A stretch of DNA of 64,000 nt from Patescibacteria group bacterium (GTDB lineage Bacteria > Patescibacteriota > Minisyncoccia > Phycocordibacterales > UBA9973). Numbering within the stretch: position 1 is the first letter of the stretch; the number at the start of each line of letters is the position of its first letter. Positions 5,226 through 29,866 of the stretch are shown here, one piece after another. The notes beneath the pieces are model-generated. The model did no database searches. It had not been told where the DNA came from and was given only the letters and a program-made list of their open reading frames with translations. The DNA lies in assembly GCA_030916965.1 (NCBI GenBank), contig JAUPVQ010000012.1:776-64775 (forward strand), read 5' to 3'. A program made the translations under genes and the position numbers.

Positions 5226-5684
5226 CTAGAAACCAAAGCCCATTCCCATACCATGACCCATTCCTCCTTTGCCCTTACCTTTTTTGTCTTTCATTTTATC
5301 TGCCATTTTTTGCATTGTGGCAAGACGTGCATCGGCTTGAGCCTGAGTGATCACACCTTTATCTACAAGAGTTTGTAGGTGCGTTTTCATCTCTGCTTGG
5401 TGCGCTGCTTTCATTTTAGCTTTCAAAACTTCCTCAGTAATTCCCTTCTGCTTTGCGAGCTCTTTGAAGCTTGTACCGTTTGCCCACGCAGTTTTGACTT
5501 CATCAACGGTTGCACCTATCAGGGTTGCTTGCTGTTGGAACATCTGTGTGTGCATTGTTGCTACCTGCTCAGGTGTGACATTTTTGTTCATGCCACCACC
5601 AAATGCCTCGGCTGAGCCTGCTCCTATTAGGAGTGCTAATGCTAGTGCTGGTAAGCTATATTTAAGTAATTTGTTTTTATTCAT
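5226..5684 (-). CDS. Secreted periplasmic Spy/CpxP/ZraP-like protein with a Gly/Met/His-rich C-terminal tail
   Basis: Signal peptide MNKNKLLKYSLPALALALLIGAGSAEA. Helical body with LTxxQ-like motifs (VTPEQ, ITEE). C-terminus KKGKGKGGMGHGMGMGFGF resembles the metal-binding tail of ZraP. Confidence 0.5.
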   Translation of the reverse strand: MNKNKLLKYSLPALALALLIGAGSAEAFGGGMNKNVTPEQVATMHTQMFQQQATLIGATVDEVKTAWANGTSFKELAKQKGITEEVLKAKMKAAHQAEMKTHLQTLVDKGVITQAQADARLATMQKMADKMKDKKGKGKGGMGHGMGMGFGF

Positions 5685-5772
5685 ATTTATTATTTTACTT
5701 TCTTAAGTTAATAATGTTGCAAGGATATCGCTTGCATATACTACTACATTTCAAATAATAAAATATTTCAAA

Positions 5773-6330
5773 TTAATCTCTTTCTATATGCTCTGGTCCC
5801 CTCACTTTGTTTTCGAATCTTTCAAAACGCTCTCTTTCCATCATCTCTCCACGATAATACTTGTGCATAGGCCCAAGGATTGGGGTACGAGGACCTTCTC
5901 CAAAGCGAGCAAATCTGAAATTCATGTCAAAAATATGGACAATAATACCAGTAAACAAAACAAAGAATATTAATCCAAAAAAGCTATACACAAGTGGCTT
6001 CCTATAAACAAAAGAATATTGTTTAACTAATATATAAAATGTCATTAATAGAAACATTGAAAGTAGAACAATAACCCAAGGTATTGCTACCATAAATGCA
6101 CGCATTCCCCGAGGACTAAGATCAAGTATATTGAAATCTTTTTCGTGAGTTACCAACCCGATGAAGTTCAGCAAGTACACAATTACAAAAAACAAAATAA
6201 TAATCGATAGAACTCGCAATATTGTCTTTAATACAAAATGCCATTTGGGCTTCATTATAATCTTCCCTGACTTAATAGAACTAGTGACAAATTCTTCTAT
6301 TGAATTGTTGTGATTATTTTTCATATACAA
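5773..6330 (-). CDS. 3-TM membrane protein overlapping the end of the ECF sigma gene. Possible anti-sigma factor (inference).
   Basis: Three hydrophobic helices, charged cytoplasmic tail, 17-nt overlap with the upstream sigma factor gene. Confidence 0.4.
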   Translation of the reverse strand: MYMKNNHNNSIEEFVTSSIKSGKIIMKPKWHFVLKTILRVLSIIILFFVIVYLLNFIGLVTHEKDFNILDLSPRGMRAFMVAIPWVIVLLSMFLLMTFYILVKQYSFVYRKPLVYSFFGLIFFVLFTGIIVHIFDMNFRFARFGEGPRTPILGPMHKYYRGEMMERERFERFENKVRGPEHIERD

Positions 6331-7668: not shown

Positions 7669-7880
7669 AAGTATTTAGAAAATTCTGGATTTGTGGTCAG
7701 AGATAATTTATTCGTCGTCACTCATAAATTTCCCCGACCCTGACTCACCCGTTTTGCTTACTAGCAAAACATGACTCCGTCTCGCACAATGTGGTCACAA
7801 ATATTTTTCTGTTGAAAAATTTCGCGACCCCGGCTCGGCACCGACGTGCCTGCGCCTCGCACAAAATCTCCCAGATTTTG

Positions 7881-7954
7881 TGCGCCCTCATGGATTCGAA
7901 CCATGGACCCCAGAGGTATAAGCTCTGTGCTCTAACCAACTGAGCTAAGGGCGC
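7881..7954 (-). tRNA. tRNA-Ile with anticodon UAU (reads AUA)
   Basis: Hand-folded cloverleaf: acceptor GCGCCCT/AGGGCGC, D-arm GCTC-AGTTGGTTA-GAGC, anticodon stem CAGAG/CTCTG with loop CTTATAC (U33, A37), T-arm CATGG-TTCGAAT-CCATG, discriminator A. No encoded CCA. Confidence 0.8.
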
Positions 7955-9994: not shown

Positions 9995-10438
9995 ATGACA
10001 GTTTTTACAGACAATCGAAAAGCCTTTTTCAACTACGAAATGCTCGACAAATTCGAAGCAGGTATTGAATTGGCGGGGTACGAGGTCAAATCCATCCGTG
10101 CAGGACAATGCAACTTGAAAGGTGCATATTGTATAGTACGTGGGGGTGAAGTGTATCTTATTGGTATGCATGTGTCTCCTTATCAGATCAAGAACATGCC
10201 AACAACTTACGAGCCAGATCAGAATCGCAAGCTTCTTTTGAATAAAAAAGAAATCGCCATGTTGCTGACAGCCGAGAAGTCTAAAGGATTGACTCTGATA
10301 CCACTATCATTGTATAGTAAGGGTCGCAGAGTAAAGGTTGAAATAGCAATTGCCAAAGGAAAGAAGATCCACGACAAACGTGACTCAATCAAAAAGCGCG
10401 ACACGGATCGCGAAATGCGTAGAACTTTGAAAGAATAA
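9995..10438 (+). CDS. smpB: SsrA-binding protein SmpB
   Basis: 147 aa. NRKAFFNYEMLDKFEAGIELAGYEVKS...GMHVSPYQ...KLLLNKKEI and a basic C-terminal tail. Confidence 0.9.
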   Translation: MTVFTDNRKAFFNYEMLDKFEAGIELAGYEVKSIRAGQCNLKGAYCIVRGGEVYLIGMHVSPYQIKNMPTTYEPDQNRKLLLNKKEIAMLLTAEKSKGLTLIPLSLYSKGRRVKVEIAIAKGKKIHDKRDSIKKRDTDREMRRTLKE

Positions 10439-10443
10439 TAAAT

Positions 10444-10833
10444 GGGGATGACGGGCTTTCGACAGGAAGTGCCATTATGTATATGCGTGTCGAGTACTCA
10501 GGAACCTCGCAAAACTTCTTGAAAAAGACTAAGTGCAAACAAAGTCGCTTCAGTAAAATCTCCTTACGCTTTTGCGTCTGGAAATTTTGCTCTATCCTTC
10601 GCCTAATAGGTCAAGGTAGTGTCCACTCTATCGACATCCGATAAATAGTTTGGGCATAATCAATCGGATTACGAATTCTATACCGCTTGAATAGAATTTC
10701 GACAATCAAAAGCTCGGTATTGTAGTGTTTTGAATGTTCTCTAGCTACATTATTTAAAACCAATGAACACTCTACACACGTAGAATTATATATAATCATT
10801 TTTTGCACGGCGGTTCAACTCCGCCCATCTCCA
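10444..10833 (+). ncRNA. ssrA: tmRNA (ssrA)
   Basis: 5' end GGGGATGACGGGCTTTCGACAGG and 3' end GGCGGTTCAACTCCGCCCATCTCCA form a tRNA-Ala-like acceptor with G3:U70 and a T-arm. An internal tag ORF, gca aac aaa gtc ... tcc ttc gcc taa tag, gives ANKVASVKSPYAFASGNFALSFA with a tandem stop. Lies immediately downstream of smpB. Confidence 0.85.
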
Positions 10834-10842
10834 CAGACAATA

Positions 10843-10886: not shown

Positions 10887-12245
10887 TTATTTCACCAACT
10901 TACTTGCTATACCTGTATATGTTAATGGTGTAAACTTTTTTAATTCAGCTTTTACTTTTTCTGAGACTTTTAGTGTGTCGATAAATGTTGCGAAGTCCGA
11001 CATTCCTACATTCTTGCCACGAGTTAATTCTTTCAAGGCTTCGTACGGCACAGGTAAGCCTTCCCTGCGCATTACTGTCTGGATCGCTTCGGCTACGACT
11101 TCTGGGTGTGATAGCAAATCTTCTTTAATTTTATTTTCATTTACTGCAATTTTACTCAAACCTTTTTCAAGCATTACATATGCCAAATATGAGTGCCCAA
11201 ACGCTGTTCCAAATGCGCGCTCAACAGTCGAATCGGAAAGATCGCGTTGTAGTCGTGATACCGGCAATTTGCGAGCAAAGAATTCAAACAAAGCATTGGC
11301 AATACCTATATTACCCTCACTGTTCTCGAAATCGATTGGGTTAACCTTGTGTGGCATTGTAGATGAGCCTACCTCCCCTTCTTTGGTCTTTTGAGTAACC
11401 CAAGAATCAGAAATGTATCTCCACATATCTTGATTGAAATCAAGCAATATTGTATTGATCCTGCGTACTGTATCGAATACTGCTACATAGCTATCGTGGC
11501 ATTCGATTTGTGTAGTAATCAAATTCGCTTCCAATTTTTGAGTACGTCCTTTGTTGAAACCTTCGATAAAATCCTGACTAAATTTTGGCCAGTTTACCGT
11601 AGGGTACGCAGCCATGTGTGCATTCCAATTGCCTGTCGCACCATTTAATTTGGCTTGGATTTTGATACCTTCGAGACCTTTCAATCTCTTCTCTATTCGT
11701 GCTACAAATACAAACATTTCTTTGCCGAAAGTTGTCGGGCTTGCAGATTGGCCATGAGTCCGCGCAAGCATTGGGAGATTTTTGTATTTAGTTGAAAGTG
11801 CTCGCAACTCTTTTACAATACTTTTAATTTTTGGAATCATTACATGCTCTAGTGAATCCGCAATCATTAATGCATAAGCGATATTGTTTGTATCTTCACT
11901 TGTTGTAGCAAAGTGTACCCACTCTGTCGCATTCTTGAGACTTGTCTTTGCTAGCTTTTCTTTTATGAAATATTCTACTGCTTTTACATCATGATTGGTC
12001 ACACTCTCGATCTTCTTTATAGCTTCGTATGAAGCATCATCAAATTTCTCATAAAGCGATTTAAGAGTTTTGATTTCATTTACTGTAAATTTCCGCAGGC
12101 CTGTCTTGCCCGATGCGGATATTGCGAGCAAATATTCGCACTCCATCATCGTGCGGTATTTCATCAAGGCCTGCTCAGAGAAATAAGGCGCCAAATCACG
12201 AGTTCGTTCATAATATCGCCCATCGAGTGGATTTATAGCTTGCAT
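10887..12245 (-). CDS. purB: Adenylosuccinate lyase
   Basis: 452 aa, fumarate-lyase fold. Signature region GSSTMPHKVNP-like (TMPHKVNPIDFEN). Confidence 0.9.
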   Translation of the reverse strand: MQAINPLDGRYYERTRDLAPYFSEQALMKYRTMMECEYLLAISASGKTGLRKFTVNEIKTLKSLYEKFDDASYEAIKKIESVTNHDVKAVEYFIKEKLAKTSLKNATEWVHFATTSEDTNNIAYALMIADSLEHVMIPKIKSIVKELRALSTKYKNLPMLARTHGQSASPTTFGKEMFVFVARIEKRLKGLEGIKIQAKLNGATGNWNAHMAAYPTVNWPKFSQDFIEGFNKGRTQKLEANLITTQIECHDSYVAVFDTVRRINTILLDFNQDMWRYISDSWVTQKTKEGEVGSSTMPHKVNPIDFENSEGNIGIANALFEFFARKLPVSRLQRDLSDSTVERAFGTAFGHSYLAYVMLEKGLSKIAVNENKIKEDLLSHPEVVAEAIQTVMRREGLPVPYEALKELTRGKNVGMSDFATFIDTLKVSEKVKAELKKFTPLTYTGIASKLVK

Positions 12246-13204
12246 TATATTTGTTTCAAATTATTAGTAATTCTTTCCATTATAGGAGTATTGAAATCAT
12301 GGTTGAAGGGCTCGCCTGTGATTGTCTCATAGATTTCGATATATCTGCGTGAGAGCTCGGCTACCATATCAGCTGGAGCATCAGGCAGGACAGTATCGTT
12401 GTATGGATCACAATTATCTTTGAACCAAAGGCGGAGGAATTCTTTGTCGAAATATTCTGGTTCTAATCCGGCATCTATACGCTCTTGGTAAGTCGCAGCT
12501 TTCCAGTAGCGAGATGAATCTGGTGTATGCACTTCATCGATTAGTGTTAATTTTCCATTCTCATCCATACCAAATTCATATTTAGTATCAACAAGGATCA
12601 AACCTTTTGAAAGTGCGATCTCCTGCCCTCTTTTGAAAACGGCTTTTGCTACACGTTCCAATTCATCTGTCATTTCTTTTGTTAGAATTCCTTCACTTAC
12701 AATCTCGGCTGGGGTAATTGGCCTGTCATGTTCATCGGACTTTGTTGTTGGGGTAAAAACTGGCTCATCCATTTTTTGATTCTTTTTCAAACCTTCTGGT
12801 AGTACAAAGTTTCCAAAATCTCTTTGGCCTTCCTTGTACAATGTCCACATAGATGTATTTGTAGAACCAGTAATATATCCTCGCACAATACACTCAATGG
12901 GGATCACTGTGCACTTCTTGGCAACAAGAACATTTGGGTCTGGAATACTTACCACGTGGTTCTGGATTATATCTTTTGTATTTTCAAACCAAAAAGCACT
13001 AATCTGGTTGAGCACAGCACCCTTGAATGGAATATGCGCAATAATGCGATCAAAAGATGAATGCCTGTCTGTAGAAACCAATGTAATTTTATCCGGAGCA
13101 ATATAAATATCGCGAACCTTACCAATCTTGCGTTCCCCAATACCTTGCAAATTTGTCTCTTTAATTACATCATTGATGTGCTCTTTTATTGTATCTATAT
13201 TCAT
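12245..13204 (-). CDS. purC: SAICAR synthetase (long form)
   Basis: 319 aa. GKVRDIY...LVSTDRHSSFD motif. Confidence 0.88.
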   Translation of the reverse strand: MNIDTIKEHINDVIKETNLQGIGERKIGKVRDIYIAPDKITLVSTDRHSSFDRIIAHIPFKGAVLNQISAFWFENTKDIIQNHVVSIPDPNVLVAKKCTVIPIECIVRGYITGSTNTSMWTLYKEGQRDFGNFVLPEGLKKNQKMDEPVFTPTTKSDEHDRPITPAEIVSEGILTKEMTDELERVAKAVFKRGQEIALSKGLILVDTKYEFGMDENGKLTLIDEVHTPDSSRYWKAATYQERIDAGLEPEYFDKEFLRLWFKDNCDPYNDTVLPDAPADMVAELSRRYIEIYETITGEPFNHDFNTPIMERITNNLKQI

Positions 13205-13205
13205 A

Positions 13206-14246
13206 TTATTTCAATACTACTTTTTTATTACCACTAATAATTTGACCAATTTCGTACATTATAAAATCAGGATATTTATTCAAAATTTCAGCAATTTTTT
13301 CTTTCTCTGTTTGTGGCACAATCAGGATCAAACCAATTCCCATATTAAATGCTCGGTACATTTGATCCTCGGGAACATTTGCTACCTTTTGCATATAAGA
13401 AAATATTGGGAGAACTGGCCAAGAATTCAGATTAATTTGTGCATCTAGATTTGCAGGTAACACACGAGGAATATTCTCGAGGAATCCTCCGCCTGTAATA
13501 TGCGCAATTCCACGAACATCAATCCCTTTATCGAGCATCTCGAGTACTGGTACAGAATAGTTTACGTGCACTTTCAATAATGCATCACCTACGCTCTCCC
13601 CGATTTCATCTACAACAGTATTTACATCTAGACCAGCCATATCAAAAAGTATTTTGCGAGCAAGCGAATAGCCATTGGTATGTAGCCCACTTGATGGTAG
13701 TCCTAGCAGAATATCTCCATCAATAATTTTCTCACCTGTAATTATTTTGTCCTTCTCTACCACTCCTGTAATCGAGCCTGCAATATCGTGCTCTCCTGTC
13801 ATATAAGTTCCTGGCATTTCAGCAGTCTCGCCACCAATTAGTGACACGCCATTTTCGCGGCAGGCCTTGGCCATACCACCCACCATCGCAGCCATTACAT
13901 TTGGATCCAATTTGTCGTGCGCTACATAGTCGAGGAATGTAAGAGATCGTGCACCCATAGCCAATAGGTCATCACAGCAATGATTCACAATATCTTCACC
14001 GACTGTATCGTATTTGTTCATCATCCGTGCAACAGAAAGCTTGGTCCCCACGCCATCTATAGATTGTACCAAAACGGGATTTTTGTAATTCTTTATTATT
14101 TCGCTCAAGTCATATAGCCCTCCGAAGCTACCGATACCAGTAAGCACAGCACTCGTATGAGTACTCGCAACATCAGCCTTGATACGGCGTACCGTCTCGT
14201 TCCCTGCTTCGATATCTACTCCTGCTTGTGTGTATAGATCAGCCAT
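13206..14246 (-). CDS. purM: AIR synthetase (phosphoribosylformylglycinamidine cyclo-ligase)
   Basis: 346 aa. N-terminus MADLYTQAGVDIEAGN. PurM N and C domains. Confidence 0.9.
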   Translation of the reverse strand: MADLYTQAGVDIEAGNETVRRIKADVASTHTSAVLTGIGSFGGLYDLSEIIKNYKNPVLVQSIDGVGTKLSVARMMNKYDTVGEDIVNHCCDDLLAMGARSLTFLDYVAHDKLDPNVMAAMVGGMAKACRENGVSLIGGETAEMPGTYMTGEHDIAGSITGVVEKDKIITGEKIIDGDILLGLPSSGLHTNGYSLARKILFDMAGLDVNTVVDEIGESVGDALLKVHVNYSVPVLEMLDKGIDVRGIAHITGGGFLENIPRVLPANLDAQINLNSWPVLPIFSYMQKVANVPEDQMYRAFNMGIGLILIVPQTEKEKIAEILNKYPDFIMYEIGQIISGNKKVVLK

Positions 14247-14767
14247 TATTTTTGTAAATAATTTTTATAACCAATTTCTGACATCTTTTTTGCTTTTGTT
14301 TTTACACCTGATTCTAGTTTCTTTTTGAATTCATTCAACTTTTTTTGTAGAGTCTTGTCACTAGTTGCTAAAATTTGGACTGCCAATATTCCAGCATTGT
14401 GTGCAGAATTGATACCAACAGTTGCAACAGGAATACCAGGTGGCATCTGTACTGTAGAGAGGAGTGAGTCTAGTCCATCGAGAGTCTTGGCCTTGATAGG
14501 CACACCTATCACAGGAAGTGTAGTCAACGATGCTGCTACCCCTGCTAGATGCGCTGCCCCACCAGCTGCGGCAATTATCACCTTCAACCCACGAGTAATT
14601 GCACTTGTTGCATAAGCATGAGCAATGTTTGGAGAACGGTGCGCAGATGCTACAGTAATCTCGTATGGCACACCAAAGTCTTCTAATAGTGTACAAGCCT
14701 CACTCATAACACCCAAATCAGAATCAGAACCCATAATAATACCTACTATTGATTTTGCCTTTTTCAT
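14246..14767 (-). CDS. purE: N5-CAIR mutase / AIR carboxylase catalytic subunit
   Basis: 173 aa. IVGIIMGSDSDLGVM...ITVASAHRSP...AAGGAAHLAGV. Confidence 0.9.
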   Translation of the reverse strand: MKKAKSIVGIIMGSDSDLGVMSEACTLLEDFGVPYEITVASAHRSPNIAHAYATSAITRGLKVIIAAAGGAAHLAGVAASLTTLPVIGVPIKAKTLDGLDSLLSTVQMPPGIPVATVGINSAHNAGILAVQILATSDKTLQKKLNEFKKKLESGVKTKAKKMSEIGYKNYLQK

Positions 14768-14842
14768 ATACCAAATATAGCATATTTCCCTATCCTCACA
14801 AATATATAATTAAAAACGAGGCCCCTATAAAGTAAGCCTCAT

Positions 14843-15679
14843 TTAATAAAATAGTTTTCCATCTTTAAGAGCGTTAGTAAGTTGCCCATAATTTGAAAAT
14901 ATTCTTTGGTTGTTATTTAGAAAGATATTCGTATCTTGGCTAAATAGCCAAAATGGAATTCCAGCATTTTCTGCCATTTTCCCATCAAGTTCAATATCAT
15001 CACCTATAAGTATGACATTCTGCCGCGCGTAATCCATATCGATTTGGGGATTACATTGTAGCCATTGATCAATAGCTAAAGCAATCAAATAAACACTAGG
15101 TTTATTCTTACTTTTCCAATCCAAATCAAATTGTCCAAAACTGTCATCAGGCGTGATGCAAAGTAATGGTTTTTTTAGGTTGTGAAAATTAAAAACTTCA
15201 TAAATAAATTTTTCATAACCTGATGATACAATACCGAGATCTGTATTATAGAGCTCGAGGGTATTCCGAAATTCACGGAAACCTGTATATATTTCAGGCC
15301 AAACATTTCCATTTAAACAAATTGTTCCTATGCTATGTTTTAAATAATAAATATTTGTTTTTATAAATGATGAATAAATTTCAGGAGTAGAGTCAAGATT
15401 TGAATCCAAACTTAAATCTATATCATAATTTTCACAATAGACTTTAAAGTTTGGTAACAATTCTTTTATGGATGCTAGATGCATTACCACTTGTATTAAG
15501 GATCTACCATTATTACCGCCTTCATTTAGAAATCTTGCTAAGCCTTCATATCCAAACATTAAATTAATAGTGTTGTGATATGCTTGCTCATACAAATTAT
15601 CTTCATCGGTTTTGGCAATAGTTTTAGAAAAACTAGCCAATACTAACCTTTTTGGGTATTCTATTATCGAGTTTTTCAT
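14843..15679 (-). CDS. Hypothetical protein embedded in the pur operon, with a HAD-like C-terminal motif
   Basis: 278 aa. C-terminal VILIGDDIELDGKMAENAGIPF matches HAD motif IV (GDxxxD...A..AG). No canonical DxDGT motif I was seen. Confidence 0.45.
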   Translation of the reverse strand: MKNSIIEYPKRLVLASFSKTIAKTDEDNLYEQAYHNTINLMFGYEGLARFLNEGGNNGRSLIQVVMHLASIKELLPNFKVYCENYDIDLSLDSNLDSTPEIYSSFIKTNIYYLKHSIGTICLNGNVWPEIYTGFREFRNTLELYNTDLGIVSSGYEKFIYEVFNFHNLKKPLLCITPDDSFGQFDLDWKSKNKPSVYLIALAIDQWLQCNPQIDMDYARQNVILIGDDIELDGKMAENAGIPFWLFSQDTNIFLNNNQRIFSNYGQLTNALKDGKLFY

Positions 15680-15732
15680 GACTTTACCTTTTATTAAAGT
15701 CTACATTAAAACCCAGATTTGTCAAAAAATAA

Positions 15733-17028
15733 TTACAATTTTGTATGTAGAGCTCTCTTGCCTATATCATCCCTATAATAGATGCCTTGGTAGTAGATTT
15801 TTTGTATTGCTTTGTAAGCCTTGTCTAGAGCCTCTTGTAGTGTCACACCTGTAGCCGACACCCCAAGCACTCGCCCTCCATTTGTAACAACATTGCCGTC
15901 AGCGATTGCAGTACCTGCATGAAATATTACAATATCGGGGTCATTCTGTGCTTCATTGATACCTGTAATTACTTTCCCTTTTTCATAAGCATTTGGATAA
16001 CCTCCGGATGCCAAAACAATATTACAAGCAAATAAACTTTTCCATTTAATTTCGAATTTGAATAATTCCTTTTCTATACAGGCATCAAATAACTCAAAAA
16101 TATCAACATCGAGTAACCGCATATATGTTTGAACTTCTGGATCTCCGAAGCGAGAGTTGAACTCTATTATCTTTGGTCCTTCTGTTGTGATTATTAATCC
16201 CGGGTATAGTATCCCCTCAAATGGTAGACCGTCATGCTCCATATTTACCAATGTGGGAAGAATAATGTTGTTTTTGATTCCTGTCATCAAATCTTCTGTA
16301 ACAAATGGAACAGGAGCAATCGTCCCCATACCCCCAGTGTTTAATCCTGTATCTCCTATGCCAATCTTTTTGTGATCCTGAGAAGATGGAAATACTTTTG
16401 AAGAAACTCCATCTGAGATAGCGTGAGTGGAAATCTCTGGCCCTACAAGAAATTCTTCAATAACAATTTGTTTTCCACCATCACCAAAAATCTTTTTTAT
16501 TAAAATATTTTCTACGGCAATCTTTGCCTCTTCTCTTGTAAGACAAATAAGCACACCCTTTCCAAGAGCAAGTCCAGATGCCTTGACGACTACTGGTGTT
16601 GTATGAGTATCTATATAATTAAGTGCGTCATTGTATTGCTCATCTGTAAAAGTTTGGAATTTAGATGTTGGTAAATTGTGACGATGCATGAAATCTTTTG
16701 CAAATGCCTTGGACCATTCGAGCTTGCTTGCTTCTTTTGTTGGACCCCAAATACGCAGATTATTTTTACGAAATAGATCTACAATTCCAAGTGCTAATGG
16801 ATCGTCTGGTAGTGCTAGGGTCATGTAGATATTTTCTTTTTTAGCAAATTCCAACAAGGCTTCTATATCAATAGCTCTTATATCTATATTTGTACCCAAT
16901 TCTGCTGTACCAGCATTCCCAGGTGCAAAAAAAAGTATTGGCCTATGTTGTGATTGATCCAATTTCCATCCTATAGCATGTTCCCTGCCCCCACTACCAA
17001 TTATTAATACTTTTTTATTCTGCAACAT
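15733..17028 (-). CDS. purD: GAR synthetase (phosphoribosylamine-glycine ligase)
   Basis: 431 aa. KVLIIGSGGREHAIGWKL N-terminus, ATP-grasp core. Confidence 0.9.
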   Translation of the reverse strand: MLQNKKVLIIGSGGREHAIGWKLDQSQHRPILFFAPGNAGTAELGTNIDIRAIDIEALLEFAKKENIYMTLALPDDPLALGIVDLFRKNNLRIWGPTKEASKLEWSKAFAKDFMHRHNLPTSKFQTFTDEQYNDALNYIDTHTTPVVVKASGLALGKGVLICLTREEAKIAVENILIKKIFGDGGKQIVIEEFLVGPEISTHAISDGVSSKVFPSSQDHKKIGIGDTGLNTGGMGTIAPVPFVTEDLMTGIKNNIILPTLVNMEHDGLPFEGILYPGLIITTEGPKIIEFNSRFGDPEVQTYMRLLDVDIFELFDACIEKELFKFEIKWKSLFACNIVLASGGYPNAYEKGKVITGINEAQNDPDIVIFHAGTAIADGNVVTNGGRVLGVSATGVTLQEALDKAYKAIQKIYYQGIYYRDDIGKRALHTKL

Positions 17029-17080
17029 AATTTAAATTTACCATATTTCTACCCGTTTGGGTATTTTAGTATTGTACTCT

Positions 17081-17701
17081 TTAACTGTGAGTGATCTTTC
17101 CCAAAACTTCTACATAAAGCTCATTTTCTTTCTTTTTCAATCTAGCATATAGAGATTCTACTGTGTCGTTGTTCTCTACTTTTTCAAATGTTCTACCGAG
17201 TACAGGCCCGAAGTCAAAATCAAGTGTCAGAAAATGGACTGATGACCCAGCAAAAGTACTTTTGTTATTCAAAAAATTAGCAACTGCTTTATCGGCAAGC
17301 ATTCCTTTGTTCCACAAGGCGAGGGTTCCATCTGGATTTTGAACAGTTCCCTCAACTGTATCTGGGATCAAACCAGGGTGCAAATTTAAAATCTTGTTTG
17401 GGTAAGCTGTGATAACTTCATCAAGTATTATCTTTTTCCAACCTGCTAAACATATAAAATCGGGATTCAATTTCTGTAATAGCGCCAACAAATCTTCTTT
17501 GATCGGGCAAATTTCTATGGGGATATTATGTGCTTTCGCATGTTCGAGCCCCATTGCATCATCTCTATCTGAAATAACAGCACAAATACTTGCATTGATA
17601 GAATCTCTTTCAACGCCATCAATAATTGCCTTTAAATTACTCCCAGTTCCAGTATTGGAGATAAGAACAACTATTTGTAATTTACTCTTTTGGGACATCA
17701 T
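17081..17701 (-). CDS. purN: GAR formyltransferase-like
   Basis: 206 aa. N-terminal KLQIVVLISNTGTGSNLKAI and the formyl-transferase HPGL/ICLAGW region. Confidence 0.8.
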   Translation of the reverse strand: MMSQKSKLQIVVLISNTGTGSNLKAIIDGVERDSINASICAVISDRDDAMGLEHAKAHNIPIEICPIKEDLLALLQKLNPDFICLAGWKKIILDEVITAYPNKILNLHPGLIPDTVEGTVQNPDGTLALWNKGMLADKAVANFLNNKSTFAGSSVHFLTLDFDFGPVLGRTFEKVENNDTVESLYARLKKKENELYVEVLGKITHS

Positions 17702-19079
17702 AGCTTACCTCACTTTTACGCTCTAATATATCTATTGGATATTCACCTGTGAAAAATGATGTACAGAGATTCTCTTTTGGAAGACCTATAGATTTAATAA
17801 GCCCGTCAAGTGACAAGAAGTGCAGACTTGTAGCTCCTAGGAATTCACGGATTTCCTCTACTGTTTTGTGTGATGCAATAAGGTCACCCTGCTTCGGTGT
17901 ATCAATACCATAGAAATCCGGAAATCGAACCGGTGGAGATGAAATCAGGAAGTGTACTTCCTTGGCACCAGATTTAAATAAATTCTCTACTAATTTACGG
18001 CTAGTTGTACCACGCACTATTGAATCATCTATTACAATTACTCTTTTGCCTGAAAGAACCTCTGGCATTGGGATTAATTTGAGCGCTACAGAGTGCTCGC
18101 GGGATTCTTGGTCAGGCTCTATAAATGTACGATGTACGTAGCGATTCTTGATCAAGCCTAATTCAAGAGGAATTCCAGATTTCTGAGAGAAACCAATCGC
18201 CACAGGCATAGCAGTATCTGGAACAGGCACTACTATATCTGCTTTTAGTATAAACTCTTCTGCGAGCGTCATACCAGATTGCTTACGAACTTCGTATACA
18301 GATTTGCCACAGAGTACACTATCCGGTCTTGCAAAATAAACAAATTCAAAAATATCATGATGTGGAGTCGGCTCTGCGAGCTTCACACTCTTTAACCCAT
18401 CTTTATTTATGATGAGCATTTCTCCAGGCTCTACTTCACGCAAGAATTCTGCCCCTATAGTTTTGAGTGCACAAGTTTCCGACGCTACCACAAAACCATT
18501 TTTTATTTTACCTAAAGCAAGTGGTCGCATACCATAGGAATCTCGGATTACTATAAGTGTATCTTTTGTCATCATAGTGATAGAAAATGATCCCGTCATT
18601 AGTGGAAAAACATTTTTAACACTTTCTTCTATATTCAGACCCTCTGCCAGATACACTTTGATTGCATCTGCAATCAATTCAGAATCAGAACGGTTATCTT
18701 TGAGAGCATTTTTTGAAGAGAGAAATTCTTGTAGAGCTTTGACGCTTGGCAAATTACCATTGTGAGCAAGAGCAAAATCATTCTCATTATTTACTACTGG
18801 CTGTGCATGATCAAGCGCACCACCTCCAGATGTGGAATATCGATTATGGCCAATAGCAATATGGCCTACCAATGGCTTGATTGTATCTTCGGTATATACA
18901 CCCGATACAAGCCCTGCCCCTTTGTGAGTATATAAATTAGCTCCATCACTTGTCGTGATTCCACTTGCCTCTTGTCCGCGGTGCTGAAGAGCAAACAATC
19001 CAAAAAAAGCATGCCGAGCGACATTAATGCCCTCTGCATAAATCCCAAAAACAGCACATTTTTCATTTAAATTTTCCAT
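17682..19079 (-). CDS. purF: Amidophosphoribosyltransferase
   Basis: 465 aa. Short propeptide then the Ntn Cys (MENLNEKCAVFGIY), PRTase motif VIVIDDSIVRGTTS. Confidence 0.9.
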   Translation of the reverse strand: MENLNEKCAVFGIYAEGINVARHAFFGLFALQHRGQEASGITTSDGANLYTHKGAGLVSGVYTEDTIKPLVGHIAIGHNRYSTSGGGALDHAQPVVNNENDFALAHNGNLPSVKALQEFLSSKNALKDNRSDSELIADAIKVYLAEGLNIEESVKNVFPLMTGSFSITMMTKDTLIVIRDSYGMRPLALGKIKNGFVVASETCALKTIGAEFLREVEPGEMLIINKDGLKSVKLAEPTPHHDIFEFVYFARPDSVLCGKSVYEVRKQSGMTLAEEFILKADIVVPVPDTAMPVAIGFSQKSGIPLELGLIKNRYVHRTFIEPDQESREHSVALKLIPMPEVLSGKRVIVIDDSIVRGTTSRKLVENLFKSGAKEVHFLISSPPVRFPDFYGIDTPKQGDLIASHKTVEEIREFLGATSLHFLSLDGLIKSIGLPKENLCTSFFTGEYPIDILERKSEVSYDVPKE

Positions 19080-19098
19080 TTAGGTCTCTAGTATAACA

Positions 19099-19878
19099 TT
19101 ATTTCTTAAAATAATTTACTGCATTTTTGAAGATTATTAAGCCGGGGCCTTCAGTTGGAAGTTTTGATTTCTTTCTCTTTGCAATTTCTTTTTTCAACTG
19201 CGCGTCGGGTCTTTGCTGGTAGAACATTCCTCTTTCAGGATGTGGCATCATACCGAGGATTTTTCCATTTTCAGAAAGCACACCTCCTACATCGTGCATA
19301 GCACCATTTGGATTGGCTGGAAGATTTTGGAATTCACAGATCTCACCTTTTGTATATTGAAATGCGATTTGACCATTCTTCATCATTTTTTTGTATTCAT
19401 CTTCATTAATTATGTATCGGCCTTCGCCATGAGCAATAGGCAAAGAGATTTCTTTCACCCCTTTTAACCATGGGCTACTGCCAACACACTTCATATCTAC
19501 CCAGCGATCAATATACATACCGCTTGCATTATGAGCGAGTGCACCTGGTACTAATTCCAAATTTGTAATAATCTGGAATCCATTACAAATACCGATCACC
19601 AATGTATCGCGTGCGATAAATTCATCAAGCTCTTTTTGTAAATGATTATGGAATTTGTTGGCATAAGCCTTACCAGAGCCTGTGTCATCTCCATAAGAGA
19701 ATCCTCCAGGGAAAGCAAGGATATCATAATTTGAAAGCAATGCAGGATTAGCAATCAAATCATTGATATGAACAATGTCAGCCTGTCCCCCCGCCCATTC
19801 AAAAGCATACTTGGTCTCCTCTTCGCAATTGAGCCCATACCCCGACATCACTATAATTTTTGGCTGTTTATTTTTCAT
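19099..19878 (-). CDS. purQ: FGAM synthase glutaminase subunit
   Basis: 259 aa. KIIVMSGYGLNCEEE...LAFPGGFSYGDD...GICNGFQII...HPE. Confidence 0.88.
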   Translation of the reverse strand: MKNKQPKIIVMSGYGLNCEEETKYAFEWAGGQADIVHINDLIANPALLSNYDILAFPGGFSYGDDTGSGKAYANKFHNHLQKELDEFIARDTLVIGICNGFQIITNLELVPGALAHNASGMYIDRWVDMKCVGSSPWLKGVKEISLPIAHGEGRYIINEDEYKKMMKNGQIAFQYTKGEICEFQNLPANPNGAMHDVGGVLSENGKILGMMPHPERGMFYQQRPDAQLKKEIAKRKKSKLPTEGPGLIIFKNAVNYFKK

Positions 19879-19879
19879 A

Positions 19880-22843
19880 TTATTTAAAGCTATTTGAAAA
19901 TGAATTATGGAATTTGGAAATTGTATCGACTTTTGTATCTACAATTTTTTGAGTGCCATTTTTTATTAAAAATTCTTTTCCAGATTTAACTTGTCCAATT
20001 TTTGTATATGGAATATTCTTTATCAAACTTTCAAATGCTTTCACATTACCCTTTGCCACACTTACTACAATTCTACCCTGACTTTCAGAGAACAATTTCG
20101 CATCTATACTACTTGCAGTTCCAGCAAGCTTCTTAAGATCAACATTGATACCAAGCATTCCACCAACACTTGCTTTTGCCAGTGCTTGTGCAAGACCTCC
20201 AGAATTTACAGATATTGCACTCGCAACTATACCTTTGGCAATTACTTTTTCGAGAGCTTTGTAAATTTTTGTATTTTTCTTTGTATCTACTTTTGGTACA
20301 CTATTCCCAATTGCAATATTCTTGCCAATTTGTTTGTAGTATTCACTTGCACCAAGTTCATCGTGTGTTTCCCCCAATATATATATAGTATCACCTGCAA
20401 TTTTGAATTCTGGGGTTACAGCCTTGTTGAAATCTTTCATCACACCAATTGCTGAAATTAGTAGTGTAGGTGGGATAGAAATCGCTACAGAGTTACCATC
20501 CTTATCGTAACCTTTGAAATCATTGAACATACTATCCTTACCAGAAATAAATGGAGTACCATAATCAACCGCTGTGTCATAACAAGCACGGATCGCGTCT
20601 ACCAATTCCCCTAAACGAACCTCATCATAAGATGAGCACCAGCAAGTATTGTCGAGGATTGCCAAGTGGTCAAGTGTACCACCAGCACAGATTGCATTTC
20701 GCACTGCTGTATCAATAGCACAAGATGTCATGTCGTATGTATTGATATCACCATAAGATGGATACACACTTGATGTCACAACAACGGCACGATCGGATTT
20801 AAATACTGGTTTAATAACTTGGGCATCTGTGTTTATTAATCCGGCCCCTGATAAAGGTTTAACAACCGAAGAGGATTGCACTTCGTGATCGTATTGCTCA
20901 CTTATCCATCTATTACTTCCCAAGTTTGCAGAACCAACGAGAGTTAAAAATTCTTTTGTTCGATTGTAGCCATTGGGTAACTTTGGTTCATTAAAAATCT
21001 TCACATCTCTTTTTGAATGAAGTTGTCTTGCAGGGAGACCGTTATGCAAGAATTCCATCGGCATATCCATTATCACTTTTCCGTTATGTCGAACTACGCA
21101 ATTTTTATTTTTAGAGAATTCTCCAATCACAGAGGCCTGCACTCCGCGACTTTCCATTAATTTTTGGAATTCATCCCATTTATTTTTTGGCACGGCAAGT
21201 GTCATTCGCTCTTGTGATTCAGAGATCCAAATCTGCCACGGAGAAAGTCCGGGATATTTAAGCGGAACATTCTCTATATCTACAACTGCTCCTCCACACT
21301 CTTTGGCCATTTCTGCCACAGAGCACGATATTCCTCCTGCACCATTGTCTGTAATACTATTATACAAATTTCTGTCACGCGCTTCTTTTACAATTGCATC
21401 ACTTAATTTCTTTTGAGTTATTGGATCTCCAATCTGTACAGCTGTTGCTGGGCTTGAAGAATCAAGTACTACAGATGAAAATGTCGCTCCGTGCACACCA
21501 TCAAGCCCTACCTTGCCACCAACTACTACGATATAGTCACCAGCACGAGCCCTCTTCTCTGTAGCATTCTTGCCATTTACAATACGTGGGGAAAGTCCAA
21601 TAGTCCCCGCAAAGACTAGAGGTTTGCCACGGTAGCGATCATCAAATTTTGTAAATCCATTAATTGTTGGAATTCCGGAGCAGTTTCCTCCAGCGTTTAT
21701 ACCTTTTATCACCCCGTCAACAATACGAGCAGGTGGGAGCATTTTTTGTTTTAATTTTTTATCTTTGTATAGTTCCCTTTTATCATCTGGATATCCAAAA
21801 CAAAATCCATACACATTGGCAATCGGTTTAGCTCCCATACCAAACCCGATGGTATCGCGGTTCACTCCCACAATCCCAGTGATTGCTCCACCAAATGGAT
21901 CAAGTGCTGATGGACTGTTGTGCGTCTCCACTTTGTGACTTACCATATATGTATCATCAAAAACAATTCCTCCGGCATTGTCGGAGAAAACTGAAAGACA
22001 GAAATCATTTTTACCTTTAGCTTTCCTTATATCGTTTGTAGCCTTCTTTATATAACTTTTATACAAGCCATCTTTGATATCATCAATAGAGTTTGCAAAA
22101 ATTGTATGCTTGCAGTGCTCACTCCATGTTTGTGCAAGCGATTCCAATTCTATATCTGTCGGATTTCTTTTTATATTTTTAAAAAAGTTTTGAATTACTT
22201 TCATACTCTCGAGGTCCAGTGCAAGTGGTCCCCGACGATCACCGTCTGGATCTAGTATTCCCTCTTTCCCTGTCTTTATAAGCTCATCTGTGTTTGCATT
22301 TGATAGTGGTACTACTATGCAATCTTTCTTTTTTGGCAAGACTACAACAGGCACATATAGTGGCAACCCTTTATTTTTTAATTCATTTGAGACTGGGAAA
22401 ATTGTAGCTCTTTCTATCAATGGATTGTGTAATGAGAATGCAATTTTGTTTACATCCTCTTTTGAGATTGTACCTCCAATTAGAAAAACTTTGGAAGTAT
22501 ATACAGCTTCAACATCAGCAAAAGGCCTTTTTAATAAATCACTCACACTCTCCATTACTGTATGTGCCACATTGTCTGTCACTCCAGGAGCAAAACCAAT
22601 TTCAAGTATATATGAAAAATTTGCCAGATTTGGCAATGAGTTTATGGAGTAGTTTTCAAGTTTTTTATTTATGAGAGATTGACCTGTCAAATTTAATTGC
22701 TCTGGTGTTAAGCTAGCATTAACGAGGTATGAGTCAATTACAGAAACATTTGCCACCTTGCCATATAGCCCTAAATTGTTAAAAGGCAATATCTTGCCTT
22801 TTCCATTTTGTTCATTAGGAACTACATAAATCCTTGAAATCAT
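19880..22843 (-). CDS. purL: FGAM synthase subunit PurL. At 987 aa it is larger than small PurL, with an N-terminal PurS-like extension.
   Basis: AIR-synthase-related N and C domains repeated (DxGGG-type motifs NGAGGIS / SGKDS), translationally coupled to purQ. Confidence 0.88.
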   Translation of the reverse strand: MISRIYVVPNEQNGKGKILPFNNLGLYGKVANVSVIDSYLVNASLTPEQLNLTGQSLINKKLENYSINSLPNLANFSYILEIGFAPGVTDNVAHTVMESVSDLLKRPFADVEAVYTSKVFLIGGTISKEDVNKIAFSLHNPLIERATIFPVSNELKNKGLPLYVPVVVLPKKKDCIVVPLSNANTDELIKTGKEGILDPDGDRRGPLALDLESMKVIQNFFKNIKRNPTDIELESLAQTWSEHCKHTIFANSIDDIKDGLYKSYIKKATNDIRKAKGKNDFCLSVFSDNAGGIVFDDTYMVSHKVETHNSPSALDPFGGAITGIVGVNRDTIGFGMGAKPIANVYGFCFGYPDDKRELYKDKKLKQKMLPPARIVDGVIKGINAGGNCSGIPTINGFTKFDDRYRGKPLVFAGTIGLSPRIVNGKNATEKRARAGDYIVVVGGKVGLDGVHGATFSSVVLDSSSPATAVQIGDPITQKKLSDAIVKEARDRNLYNSITDNGAGGISCSVAEMAKECGGAVVDIENVPLKYPGLSPWQIWISESQERMTLAVPKNKWDEFQKLMESRGVQASVIGEFSKNKNCVVRHNGKVIMDMPMEFLHNGLPARQLHSKRDVKIFNEPKLPNGYNRTKEFLTLVGSANLGSNRWISEQYDHEVQSSSVVKPLSGAGLINTDAQVIKPVFKSDRAVVVTSSVYPSYGDINTYDMTSCAIDTAVRNAICAGGTLDHLAILDNTCWCSSYDEVRLGELVDAIRACYDTAVDYGTPFISGKDSMFNDFKGYDKDGNSVAISIPPTLLISAIGVMKDFNKAVTPEFKIAGDTIYILGETHDELGASEYYKQIGKNIAIGNSVPKVDTKKNTKIYKALEKVIAKGIVASAISVNSGGLAQALAKASVGGMLGINVDLKKLAGTASSIDAKLFSESQGRIVVSVAKGNVKAFESLIKNIPYTKIGQVKSGKEFLIKNGTQKIVDTKVDTISKFHNSFSNSFK

Positions 22844-23304
22844 ACACCTATATTAGACTATTTTTGTCCTTATTACAAATATGTTATTATAGGCAAATGG
22901 CACAGCCAACACTACAAGTTACTGGATACCGTGGAATATGGGGAGACACTTTAACAAGTGAAATTGCAAAGAAATATGCAGGTGCATATGCTCAATTTGT
23001 AAAGAGTGAATTTCCCGACAAAGAAAATCCTACTATATTAATAGGCCGAGATGGCCGTGAAAGTGGTAAAGAGATTGCACTTGCTATTATTCCCATAATG
23101 CAATCATTTGGTATGAATGTAATAGATGGCGACATACTCCCTACTCCAACTTTGATGTTTGGAGTTAATAAATACAATTATGATGGCGCAGTAATAATTA
23201 CAGCGAGTCACAACCCTATAGAATACAATGGAATCAAGTTTGTTGTAAAAGGCGGTAGACTAACAAACGAGTCGGAAGTAGAAAAAATTAAAACATTTTT
23301 ATAA
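22834..23304 (+). CDS. Phosphohexomutase (PGM/PMM/GlmM family) domain I fragment. Probable start at MAQPTLQV, about 22897.
   Basis: Active-site loop TASHNP. Ends with a TAA 2 nt before the next ORF, which carries domains II-IV. Confidence 0.7.
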   Translation: MKSYTYIRLFLSLLQICYYRQMAQPTLQVTGYRGIWGDTLTSEIAKKYAGAYAQFVKSEFPDKENPTILIGRDGRESGKEIALAIIPIMQSFGMNVIDGDILPTPTLMFGVNKYNYDGAVIITASHNPIEYNGIKFVVKGGRLTNESEVEKIKTFL

Positions 23305-23305
23305 T

Positions 23306-24208
23306 ATGCCAAATTTTCCAAAAGAACATGCAGATCACATACTAGCCTATATCAACGTCGAGGCAATTCGCGCACGTAAATTCAAAGTGGCAGTAGACAT
23401 GATCAACGCATCCGCATGTGTTGTTGATCCGTATCTATTTGAACAACTTGGTGTGGAATTAGTTCCAATAAACAATATTCCAAATGGCAAATTCGCCCAC
23501 AAACCCGAGCCCACAGTAGAGAATCTTGTTGGGACTGGTCTTATTGTAAAAGAATCTGCTGTTGATATTGGTTTTGTCCATGACCCAGATGCAGACAGAA
23601 TGGTAATCATAAACAATGAGGGAACAGTTCTTTCCGAAGATTACACTCTAGCTTTCGGTGTAGAAAATATTTTGTCTAAAAATCCTGGAAGGAATGTTGT
23701 AATAAATATGTCTACATCACAAATGATCGATGACATAGCAGAGAGGCACGGTAGTAAATGTATCCGTACAAAGGTTGGAGAATCAAATGTGATGGGAGGC
23801 ATGTTGGAATATGATGCAATTGTCGGAGGAGAAGGCACAAGTGGTGTTATATTCCCTACTCTCAATAACTGTCGTGATAGTTTTGTCAGCTTAAGTCTTG
23901 CTCTAGAATTACTCGCAGAACGCAATCAAACCATAAATGAATGCGTAAGTTCGTTGCCAAAATATTTTATGAAAAGAGACAAGTGGCCAGTAGGTGGCGA
24001 GCTGTCAGGAATGTATTCAAAATTAAAAGAGCATTTTAAGGATGGTGTAATGAATGAGCTTGATGGTCTGCGCATAGTTCTCCCAGATAAATCTTGGATT
24101 CACTTGCGACCCTCAAACACAGAGCCAATAATCAGACTCTTTGGCGAAGCCAAGACCCAAGAAAGAGTCGAAGAACTCTTTGCCGAAGCTCAAAAAGTAA
24201 TTTCTTAA
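23306..24208 (+). CDS. Phosphohexomutase domains II-IV fragment (continuation of the preceding ORF in another frame)
   Basis: DPDADR metal-binding loop and GGEGTSG sugar-binding loop. Shifted frame relative to 22834..23304. Removing one A from the A6 run at 23282-23287 fuses the two ORFs. Confidence 0.7.
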   Translation: MPNFPKEHADHILAYINVEAIRARKFKVAVDMINASACVVDPYLFEQLGVELVPINNIPNGKFAHKPEPTVENLVGTGLIVKESAVDIGFVHDPDADRMVIINNEGTVLSEDYTLAFGVENILSKNPGRNVVINMSTSQMIDDIAERHGSKCIRTKVGESNVMGGMLEYDAIVGGEGTSGVIFPTLNNCRDSFVSLSLALELLAERNQTINECVSSLPKYFMKRDKWPVGGELSGMYSKLKEHFKDGVMNELDGLRIVLPDKSWIHLRPSNTEPIIRLFGEAKTQERVEELFAEAQKVIS

Positions 24209-29238: not shown

Positions 29239-29820
29239 TTAAAGAAAAAAATTTTTAACCTGATCTACAGAAGAATATATTTCAGCATTTATTCCAAATT
29301 CTTTTGCACTTTCTACGTTCTTGTGATCATCGTCCAGGAAAAGTATTTCCTCTTTCCTAATATTTTCTAATTCGTCATATATTTTTTGGAAAAATTCCAA
29401 ATCTGGCTTCTTTGACCCCAGATGCGCAGATGAATAAGTCTTGTCGAAGCTCTTTGCGAAACCCATTTTGTCTAGCATGTATGCAAATCTATATTTCTCA
29501 TTATTTGTAGCAACGAAACATTGAACACCTTTTCCTCTTAATTCCTGTATGTAATTAATCAATTCTTCATTTATTGTATGCTCGGCATTAAACCAATAAT
29601 CAAGAAATGTATCTACATCACCCTTCCACCCCCATAGAGACAAATGCGGTGCAACTGTTTCTTTAAGATCTGCATCGCCTACTAGGCAATTTTGAAATTC
29701 GCCATTAAAAAATGGTAATGTTTTGTTTATAGATATCCCATGCTCGCGCTCGAGCACTAGACTAAAACGCTCACCGTTTACGAGTACCCCATCAGCGTCA
29801 AAAAGTATTACTTTGATCAT
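29239..29820 (-). CDS. HAD-superfamily hydrolase (beta-PGM-like subfamily)
   Basis: Motif I VILFDADGVLV at the proposed start MIKVILFDADG (29820). The track ORF extends further and overlaps ndk. Motif IV LFLDDDHKNVESAKEFG. Confidence 0.75.
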   Translation of the reverse strand: MIKVILFDADGVLVNGERFSLVLEREHGISINKTLPFFNGEFQNCLVGDADLKETVAPHLSLWGWKGDVDTFLDYWFNAEHTINEELINYIQELRGKGVQCFVATNNEKYRFAYMLDKMGFAKSFDKTYSSAHLGSKKPDLEFFQKIYDELENIRKEEILFLDDDHKNVESAKEFGINAEIYSSVDQVKNFFL

Positions 29821-29866
29821 AAAATTTATTTTAACACAAAAAGCACCCGAAGGTGCTTTTTGTAAA

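Follow-up and report, generated by a model that had tools for sequence, protein, structure and literature searches.

A HAD-fold protein without its catalytic aspartates in the de novo purine operon of a Patescibacteria bacterium

Introduction

Why would a bacterium keep a gene for a HAD-fold protein without its catalytic residues in the middle of its purine biosynthesis operon? The question is raised by a stretch of 64,000 nucleotides from a Patescibacteria group bacterium (contig JAUPVQ010000012.1, positions 776 to 64,775; hereafter the window). Ten co-directional open reading frames (ORFs) on its minus strand span positions 10887-22843 in the order purL-purQ-purF-purN-purD-X-purE-purM-purC-purB, where X stands for a gene encoding a HAD-like protein of 278 residues. 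An original prediction, made from the sequence alone, recognised the operon and considered X a possible nucleotidase, a phosphatase acting on pathway intermediates or a non-orthologous replacement for a missing step. Our analysis favours another explanation, to which we assign a probability of about 60%: the region is a purine operon in which X is a non-catalytic descendant of a HAD phosphatase family and has a ligand-binding or scaffold role.

X has lost both aspartates of HAD motif I

X matches Pfam models only below threshold (HAD_2 and Hydrolase_like, E ∼1e-3), and its predicted structure has the Rossmannoid HAD core fold with a cap, as in HAD subfamily IA. Motif I reads LVLASFSKT (S16-F-S18-K-T20) in place of D-x-D-x-T, and both catalytic aspartates are replaced. 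The protein keeps motif II (S152/S153), motif III (K193) and motif IV (D227-D228 and D232 within IGDDIELDG), which align with SSGH, KPS and GDDxxKDG of its wider family. The original prediction was therefore right in describing a HAD motif IV without a canonical motif I. The closest known superfamily is that of the HAD-IA phosphatases with a C1 cap, which includes the Thermococcus onnurineus protein 4ygq, phosphoglycolate phosphatases, beta-phosphoglucomutase-like proteins and phosphonatase. X differs from these proteins in its S-F-S motif and in a much larger cap (278 residues compared with about 210-230).

A word-indexed search of 5.8 billion proteins retrieved six close relatives of X with 43-96% identity. 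We built a profile from X and its close relatives and used it in an exhaustive search of 1.84 billion representatives, resulting in 339 clusters at E ≤ 1e-3, 211 at ≤ 1e-10, mostly full-length matches, and 8 at ≤ 1e-30. Motif I was surveyed in 154 sequences, consisting of the 150 best representatives and the close relatives of X. The canonical D-[FWY]-D-x-T is present in 137 of them and D-A-D-N-T in one, and six are truncated at the N-terminus. The remaining ten lack D-x-D and are exactly X and its close relatives, which have SFS (seven sequences), GFS, NFP or NSS at this position. These ten sequences form one clade in a neighbour-joining tree, a rare one nested within the family, and S18 is kept in most of them. 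X is homologous over its full length to the D-x-D members (profile E 1e-38 to 1e-20), and its ancestry lies in an uncharacterised family of HAD phosphatases whose genes reside in pur operons. Intact members share the motifs GGLxNRAP, WPxPC, SSGH, VTDDDxR, KPS and GDDxxKDG. Compared with these, X has SSGH changed to SSGY, VTDDDxR to ITPDDxF and GDDxxKDG to GDDxxLDG, and GGLxNRAP is also altered. A sequence profile of the intact D-x-D family found no relatives in the PDB at E < 0.1.

Intact relatives of X are paired with a kinase-like protein in purine operons

We then compared the gene neighbourhoods of X and its D-x-D relatives. The related contigs L001-L011, L016 and L045 have X between purD and purE, and in L012 the order is purD-X(GFSGT)-purK-purE-purM. 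The D-x-D HAD gene is flanked by pur genes in 16 of 17 metagenome loci, and it is present in pur clusters on three of the four contig sets that we looked up (L021/L022, L023/L024 and L043/L044). Contigs L019/L020 carry the HAD gene and the partner described below without pur genes.

Almost all D-x-D loci contain a second gene, usually directly adjacent to the HAD gene, for a P-loop protein of ∼175 residues belonging to the Pfam family AAA_28. The usual orders are purL-purQ-HAD-AAA_28-purE/purM, or purM and a large purL with AAA_28 on one strand and HAD divergently on the other (purM<-lgPurL<-AAA_28, HAD->). A profile search of the fetched stretches detected AAA_28 in 16 distinct D-x-D loci, and the long D-x-D locus L041 does not have it. 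Of the 16 distinct contigs that carry both genes, 15 have the pair within a purine operon. The best PDB matches of an AAA_28 profile are the riboside-kinase domains of NadR (9x6f at 1e-5, 8x7f and 1lw7; E 1e-5 to 9e-3). The Pfam AAA_28 model matches nine of nine members, and the dNK (deoxynucleoside kinase) model matches seven of the nine weakly. Judged by these similarities, the neighbour is most likely a riboside or nucleoside kinase. This partner, and not X, shares with the C-terminal ribosylnicotinamide kinase domain of NadR a P-loop kinase fold of ∼170 residues, and the matches span nearly the whole domain; it differs in being a stand-alone protein encoded in pur operons, and the similarity is distant. 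We also considered the 492-residue family member P0106 as a HAD-AAA_28 fusion but rejected this possibility, because its C-terminus has no similarity to AAA_28.

In contrast to the D-x-D loci, none of the eight distinct X-clade loci contained AAA_28 when the fetched stretches were searched by hmmsearch with the AAA_28 profile, and neither did the 64-kb window. The nearest intact relatives, L043 and L044, have the order purL-purQ-purF-purN-purD-(68 aa)-HAD(DFDGT)-AAA_28-purK-purE-purM-purC-purB; this is the operon of the window plus AAA_28 and purK. X has the same slot after purD and before purK/purE as the HAD of L043 and L037, while it differs from the HAD of the uncharacterised pair (L043, L021, L029, L023) in having neither D-x-D nor an AAA_28 neighbour. 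Within one operon architecture we observed three states:

L043, L044 and L037: intact HAD, AAA_28 and purK; purD-HAD(DFDGT)-AAA_28-purK-purE
L012: dead HAD and purK; purD-X(GFSGT)-purK-purE
Window and most relatives: dead HAD alone; purD-X(SFSKT)-purE

In addition, purK no longer stands between X and purE in most of the X clade. The original prediction named membership of X in a common family associated with pur operons as an outcome that would count against it. This outcome is partly borne out, as the family is routinely found inside pur operons, although it is uncharacterised. A literature search that did not cover all journals returned nothing relevant on AAA_28, PF13521 or a HAD protein as a component of pur operons.

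X is most likely a non-catalytic protein tied to the purine pathway

To our knowledge, every characterised HAD phosphotransferase needs the aspartate nucleophile of motif I and the general acid at Asp+2. Without them X would be unable to form an aspartyl-phosphate intermediate, and by its sequence it should not be a working phosphatase or nucleotidase. The nucleotidase or phosphatase activity first proposed for X is thus unlikely, with both motif I aspartates replaced throughout the clade and S, G or N at the first position. The replaced positions vary (S/G/N and S/P), which argues that they were not recruited as new catalytic residues. The gene is nevertheless under purifying selection. The ratio of nonsynonymous to synonymous substitution rates (dN/dS) was 0.11 for the window and L011 and 0.10 for L007 and L009, the two least saturated pairs. 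These values are close to that of PurN and about two- to three-fold above those of the most conserved Pur enzymes. Moreover, 92 alignment columns are invariant among seven X sequences with identities down to 43%. Purifying selection, together with the retained phosphate- and Mg-binding motifs II-IV, suggests that X is most likely non-catalytic and tied to the pathway. It would bind a phosphorylated pathway intermediate or act as a partner of a neighbouring Pur enzyme.

Several observations weigh against this explanation. The non-catalytic role is deduced only from the lost nucleophile, and the presence of motifs II-IV would leave room for water-mediated or altered chemistry. The AlphaFold2 (AF2) model of X has an overall predicted local distance difference test score (pLDDT) of 72, with a confident core and values below 50 for cap residues 91-129. 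Two members of the clade, P0019 and P0020, also lack the lysine of motif III. When relatives are compared, X and PurD (47-48% identity) have diverged much further than the products of the flanking genes (85-97%); this divergence fits recombination and could also reflect relaxed constraint. Finally, the losses of the aspartates and of AAA_28 are a single evolutionary event in one monophyletic clade, and their correlation is statistically weak.

X could still be an enzyme with altered chemistry, in which an Mg-activated water or another nucleophile acts on a purine ribotide such as AICAR-P, inosine monophosphate (IMP) or aminoimidazole ribotide (AIR). The retention of motifs II, III and IV and of the HAD-IA fold, the dN/dS of about 0.1, the conserved position within the operon and the conservation of S18 in most clade members would all agree with such an activity. 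We consider it unlikely because, as far as the superfamily is known, the motif I aspartate pair is indispensable in characterised HAD phosphotransferases, and because the first (S/G/N) and third (S/P) residues of motif I vary within the clade, as conserved catalytic residues would not. Further positions that the D-x-D family keeps constant have changed as well (SSGY, ITPDDxF and GDDxxLDG). The opposite possibility, a decaying remnant without function that is on its way to being lost after its AAA_28 partner vanished, would explain the missing catalytic residues, the further degraded P0019 and P0020 without motif III lysine, and why no other gene of the operon differs as much between relatives as X. 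However, the reading frame is intact and of full length in eight distinct loci with identities down to 43%, the invariant columns noted above run through seven of the sequences, and dN/dS is 0.10-0.16, similar to PurN. CPR genomes (those of the Candidate Phyla Radiation) are streamlined and rarely keep dead genes, and we regard functionless decay as quite unlikely.

The remaining explanation takes X as a non-orthologous replacement for PurK, which forms N5-carboxyaminoimidazole ribotide (N5-CAIR), or for PurH in the formylation of aminoimidazole carboxamide ribotide (AICAR) and/or cyclisation to IMP. It draws on the lack of purK and purH in the window and in the majority of related operons, and on the location of X directly upstream of purE, a frequent position of purK. 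Several loci contradict it. X is a direct neighbour of purK in L012 (purD-X-purK-purE), so the two are not mutually exclusive and we rejected X as a PurK substitute. D-x-D relatives occur with purK (L036, L037 and L043), with PurP (L021) and with a PurH fragment that has only the IMP cyclohydrolase part (L029). The family also co-occurs with PurF, PurD and PurN (L040, L041 and L043) and with PurL/Q, PurM, PurE, PurC and PurB. We therefore rejected X or its module as a replacement for PurF, PurD, PurN, PurK, PurP or IMP cyclohydrolase, with each of which the family co-occurs. Since every canonical step of the pathway is seen beside the family at the level of contigs, the HAD family appears to be accessory and not a substitute for a missing step. 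In addition, it is not evident how a HAD fold without nucleophile could carry out ATP-dependent carboxylation or formyl transfer, and class I PurE without PurK is not taken as a sign of a missing enzyme (PMC3261824). The replacement role suggested in the original prediction is thus not supported, and we consider it very improbable.

The operon encodes the pathway from PRPP to AICAR

The ORF listing, Pfam and NCBIfam searches confirmed the ten-gene operon and its gene order as originally described. At one extreme of the spacing purF and purN overlap by 20 bp, and at the other X and purE are 75 bp apart. Nine of the ten ORFs were identified as Pur enzymes by Pfam and NCBIfam, and eight of these nine passed the curated threshold of their NCBIfam equivalog models. 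The ninth, PurN, fell short of the TIGR00639 cut-off, yet it is a clear Formyl_trans_N protein according to Pfam. The features of the operon, all on the minus strand, are listed below; the abbreviated products are formylglycinamidine ribotide (FGAM), glycinamide ribotide (GAR) and succinylaminoimidazole carboxamide ribotide (SAICAR).

19880..22843, minus: purL, PurS-fused type (mdPurL / PurSL), 987 residues, without glutaminase domain; TIGR01736, 533 bits, from residue 212; AIRS, AIRS_C, FGAR-AT_linker
22229..22843, minus: predicted double PurS-like domain, PurL residues 1-205, which would stand in for a separate purS; AF2 model and Foldseek
19099..19878, minus: purQ, glutaminase subunit of FGAM synthase; GATase_5, 1.4e-70; TIGR01737 above cut-off
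17682..19079, minus: purF, amidophosphoribosyltransferase with a 7-residue propeptide before Cys8; TIGR01134, 458 bits, from residue 8
17081..17701, minus: purN, folate-dependent GAR formyltransferase; Formyl_trans_N, 3.7e-31; TIGR00639, 118.8 bits, below the cut-off of 150.1
15733..17028, minus: purD, GAR synthetase; TIGR00877, 479 bits; GARS_N, GARS_A, GARS_C
14843..15679, minus: X, HAD-IA-fold protein without nucleophile, motif I S16-F-S18, 278 residues; sub-threshold HAD_2 and Hydrolase_like
14246..14767, minus: purE, class I (N5-CAIR mutase) motifs; TIGR01162, 207 bits
13206..14246, minus: purM, AIR synthetase; TIGR00878, 371 bits
12245..13204, minus: purC, SAICAR synthetase; NF009251, 419 bits; SAICAR_synt, 1.3e-71
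10887..12245, minus: purB, adenylosuccinate lyase with ASL_C domain; NF006764, 628 bits

The region is probably an intact operon for de novo purine synthesis, transcribed as one unit, in a Nomurabacteria/Paceibacteria-like member of the Patescibacteria. It would cover the pathway from phosphoribosyl pyrophosphate (PRPP) to AICAR by PurF, PurD and PurN, then PurSL with PurQ, and finally PurM, class I PurE, PurC and PurB. No riboswitch or leader was found upstream of purL, as Rfam at the gathering threshold gave only a tmRNA and one tRNA, and a scan for promoters and terminators across the operon did not exceed the shuffled expectation. Like the Bacillus subtilis-type pur operon (purEKBCSQLFMNHD), the operon of the window is a single co-directional unit for most of the pathway with split PurL/PurQ and a PurF propeptide. 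Unlike it, the window operon has a different gene order, a fused PurS, no purK or purH, an additional HAD-fold gene and no Rfam purine riboswitch.

The N-terminal extension of PurL noted in the original prediction is real, as the small-PurL model (TIGR01736) aligns only from residue 212. The lack of a separate purS, which had been read as a gap, has an explanation in this extension. Residues 1-205 had no match in Pfam and only weak matches at the sequence level: the best PDB profile was PurS 8j3n (E 0.12), and an hhalign comparison with the N-domains of large PurL reached E 0.009 at a probability of 4%. The AF2 model of these residues, built on 37 homologues, has a mean pLDDT of 90.2. In a Foldseek search of the PDB with this model, the 18 best hits were without exception N-domains of large PurL, from Salmonella and human (7dw7, 1t3t and human PFAS; E 4e-5 to 7e-4). 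Next came PurS of Thermotoga and Thermus (1vq3 and 2cuw), which match half of the model. The predicted structure thus settles what sequence methods alone could not identify: the N-terminal part of PurL is a double PurS-like domain, and PurS is present as a fusion. This domain would do the job of PurS and work with the separate PurQ. A PurL form with ∼200 additional N-terminal residues, called mdPurL, has already been described in some methanogens and likewise has the extension instead of a separate PurS, along with a separate PurQ (PMC3261824). The case in the window differs in that it comes from a CPR bacterium, and the PurS-like fold is shown by structure prediction and not just suspected. 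A protein identical to the PurL of the window is named PurSL by NCBI.

Class I PurE uses N5-CAIR, which is normally supplied by PurK. In an alignment, the motifs SAHRSP and AAGGAAHLAG of the PurE of the window correspond to those of the class I enzyme of E. coli, and the class I signatures in the 40s and 70s loops (SAHR.P and AGGAAHL.G, defined from general background and PMC3261824) are present. No homologue of purH, purK, purP or AAA_28 was found within the 64-kb window, so the absence of purH and purK that had been noted for the cluster holds for the whole window. Class I PurE without PurK is common in organisms living at high CO2, and methanogens, Desulfurococcales and some Thermococci resemble the window in having class I PurE motifs without an adjacent purK (PMC3261824). 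In contrast to these archaea, the sister lineages L012 and L043 keep purK in the same operon, suggesting that purK was lost from this slot recently. N5-CAIR for PurE probably forms non-enzymatically or by a PurK encoded elsewhere in the genome. Other contigs that carry the HAD/AAA_28 pair form a second group whose organisation resembles that of animals, with PurC-PurE fusions that have class II PurE motifs (L023, L024 and L028) and a large PurL of 1300 residues (L023, L025, L028 and L030); in L023 and L028 the fusions carry SGHKS / GRSNGLGP instead of the class I motifs.

The last two steps of purine synthesis are probably encoded elsewhere in the genome, either by purH or by purP and an IMP cyclohydrolase as on related contigs. 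L021, which has the intact HAD/AAA_28 pair, encodes an archaeal-type PurP (16687-17802, minus; DUF1246/DUF1297). L029, also with the intact pair, encodes a stand-alone protein of 265 residues that matches only the IMP cyclohydrolase part of PurH (16454-17248, minus). In these lineages the last two steps may therefore not use the standard bifunctional PurH.

PurF begins with MENLNEK followed by CAVFGIY, placing Cys8 after a propeptide of seven residues. The TIGR01134 alignment starts at this residue, which confirms the short propeptide of the original prediction. Although the propeptide of PurF (17682-19079, minus) is Bacillus-like, the protein has four cysteines in total (8, 203, 257 and 439), too few for Cys1 plus a four-cysteine iron-sulfur site.

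The central part of the operon appears to have been exchanged between lineages

The amino acid identity between the window and L045 changes abruptly along the operon:

PurL, PurQ, PurE, PurM, PurC and PurB: 85-97%
PurF: 61%
PurN: 26%
PurD: 66%
X: 47%

Comparable breaks are present between the window and L016 and between the window and L007, and the PurN of L016 and L045 is of a different type with 240 residues. These breaks suggest that the central purF-purN-purD-X block (15733-19079) was exchanged by recombination between related lineages, which would account for X looking so divergent.

Related operons also contain additional ORFs. L010 encodes a protein of 280 residues with a weak match to the M24-peptidase/creatinase fold between purE and purM (5251-6093); we rejected it as a paralogue of X, with which it shares 16% identity. 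Small ORFs of 130-190 residues lie between purQ and purF in L007 (5397-6469), L009 (6012-6575) and L011 (4109-4633), one of them with a weak Janus/Ocnus match. In L045, which comes from a near relative of the organism studied here, an ORF for a Lys/Glu-rich, probably coiled-coil protein of 464 residues (13580-14974) is inserted between purC and purB.

Other genes in the window

Immediately next to the 3' end of purB are an ORF in the position of SmpB (9995-10438, plus) and a tmRNA gene (10444-10834, plus) with the tag ANKVASVKSPYAFASGNFALSFA, adjoined by the gene for FtsH. On the other side of the operon, an archaeal-type phosphoglucosamine mutase (GlmM/PGM) is encoded by two ORFs in different frames, with domain I in 22834-23304 (plus) and domains II-IV in 23306-24208 (plus). 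The split recurs in the independent assembly L001, and L007 and L009 have a single gene for 478-484 residues. The two ORFs may be a genuinely split gene or a pseudogene, or else result from a frameshift that is shared.

The window encodes a second, canonical HAD-IA hydrolase (29239-29937, minus; HAD_2 E 1e-16, with weak matches to nucleotidase families) outside the family of X. Its gene overlaps the start of a nucleoside diphosphate kinase gene (29867-30334, minus), and genes for an archaeal-type UMP kinase (33950-34636) and adenylate kinase (34638-35234) are nearby. A protein of 907 residues (30407-33130, minus) weakly matches VirD4/TraG/TrwB coupling proteins and HerA-type ATPases. It is named 'type IV secretion system DNA-binding domain-containing protein' by one source and has at least 90% identity to proteins of related metagenome-assembled genomes (MAGs). 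The window also contains a tRNA-Ile with the anticodon TAT (7880-7954, minus). In most bacteria AUA is read by a lysidine-modified CAT tRNA, and the tRNA-Ile(TAT) may bear on AUA decoding in this lineage.

Discussion

The operon encodes ordinary biochemistry in an unusual host. EF-Tu, PurB, PurL, PurE and FtsH of the window are identical to proteins from a MAG labelled 'Patescibacteria group bacterium' at NCBI, the closest named homologue of X is from Candidatus Nomurabacteria bacterium, and the labels of relatives include Ca. Nomurabacteria and Ca. Saccharibacteria. On these database labels we accept the CPR placement, in agreement with the original assignment. Nucleotide synthesis is absent from typical CPR genomes (PMC11809585, PMC8407418). 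Purine and pyrimidine synthesis are reportedly encoded by some Paceibacteria (PMC12239599), and the pathways are complete when the CPR is taken as a whole (PMC12114108). The purine operon is thus notable, as had been thought, but it is not new, and adds one more well-resolved case of Patescibacteria able to synthesise purines themselves. There are archaeal precedents both for the fused PurSL and for a class I PurE that lacks PurK (PMC3261824), and we see the operon itself as a good example and not as a discovery.

The region of ribosomal protein genes in the window also contains pyrE for orotate phosphoribosyltransferase (43191-43826, plus) and pyrF for orotidine monophosphate decarboxylase (43830-44558, minus). 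With both genes on the same contig, the organism is equipped for at least the final steps in the de novo synthesis of pyrimidines. Together with the purine operon they temper the textbook view of CPR bacteria as wholly dependent on a host for nucleotides.

The dead HAD protein and its intact two-gene ancestor represent a modest and testable novelty. X exposes a conserved and apparently undescribed module of two genes, a HAD phosphatase and a P-loop protein resembling riboside kinases. We tentatively propose, as a possibility that we would not yet favour, that HAD(D-x-D) and the NadR-like AAA_28 protein form an unrecognised accessory module of de novo purine synthesis in uncultured microbes with small genomes, of which X would be the non-catalytic descendant that acts as a ligand sensor or scaffold for Pur enzymes. 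The intact pair might interconvert the riboside and ribotide forms of an AIR- or AICAR-type pathway intermediate for salvage, overflow or control of the pool, a suggestion that comes solely from the pairing of a HAD phosphatase with a NadR-like kinase and from their position next to purL/Q and purM. The three states of the locus constitute a natural 'knock-out series' in one operon architecture. They provide a handle on the function of the module and raise the question of why such a streamlined genome should retain a dead enzyme.

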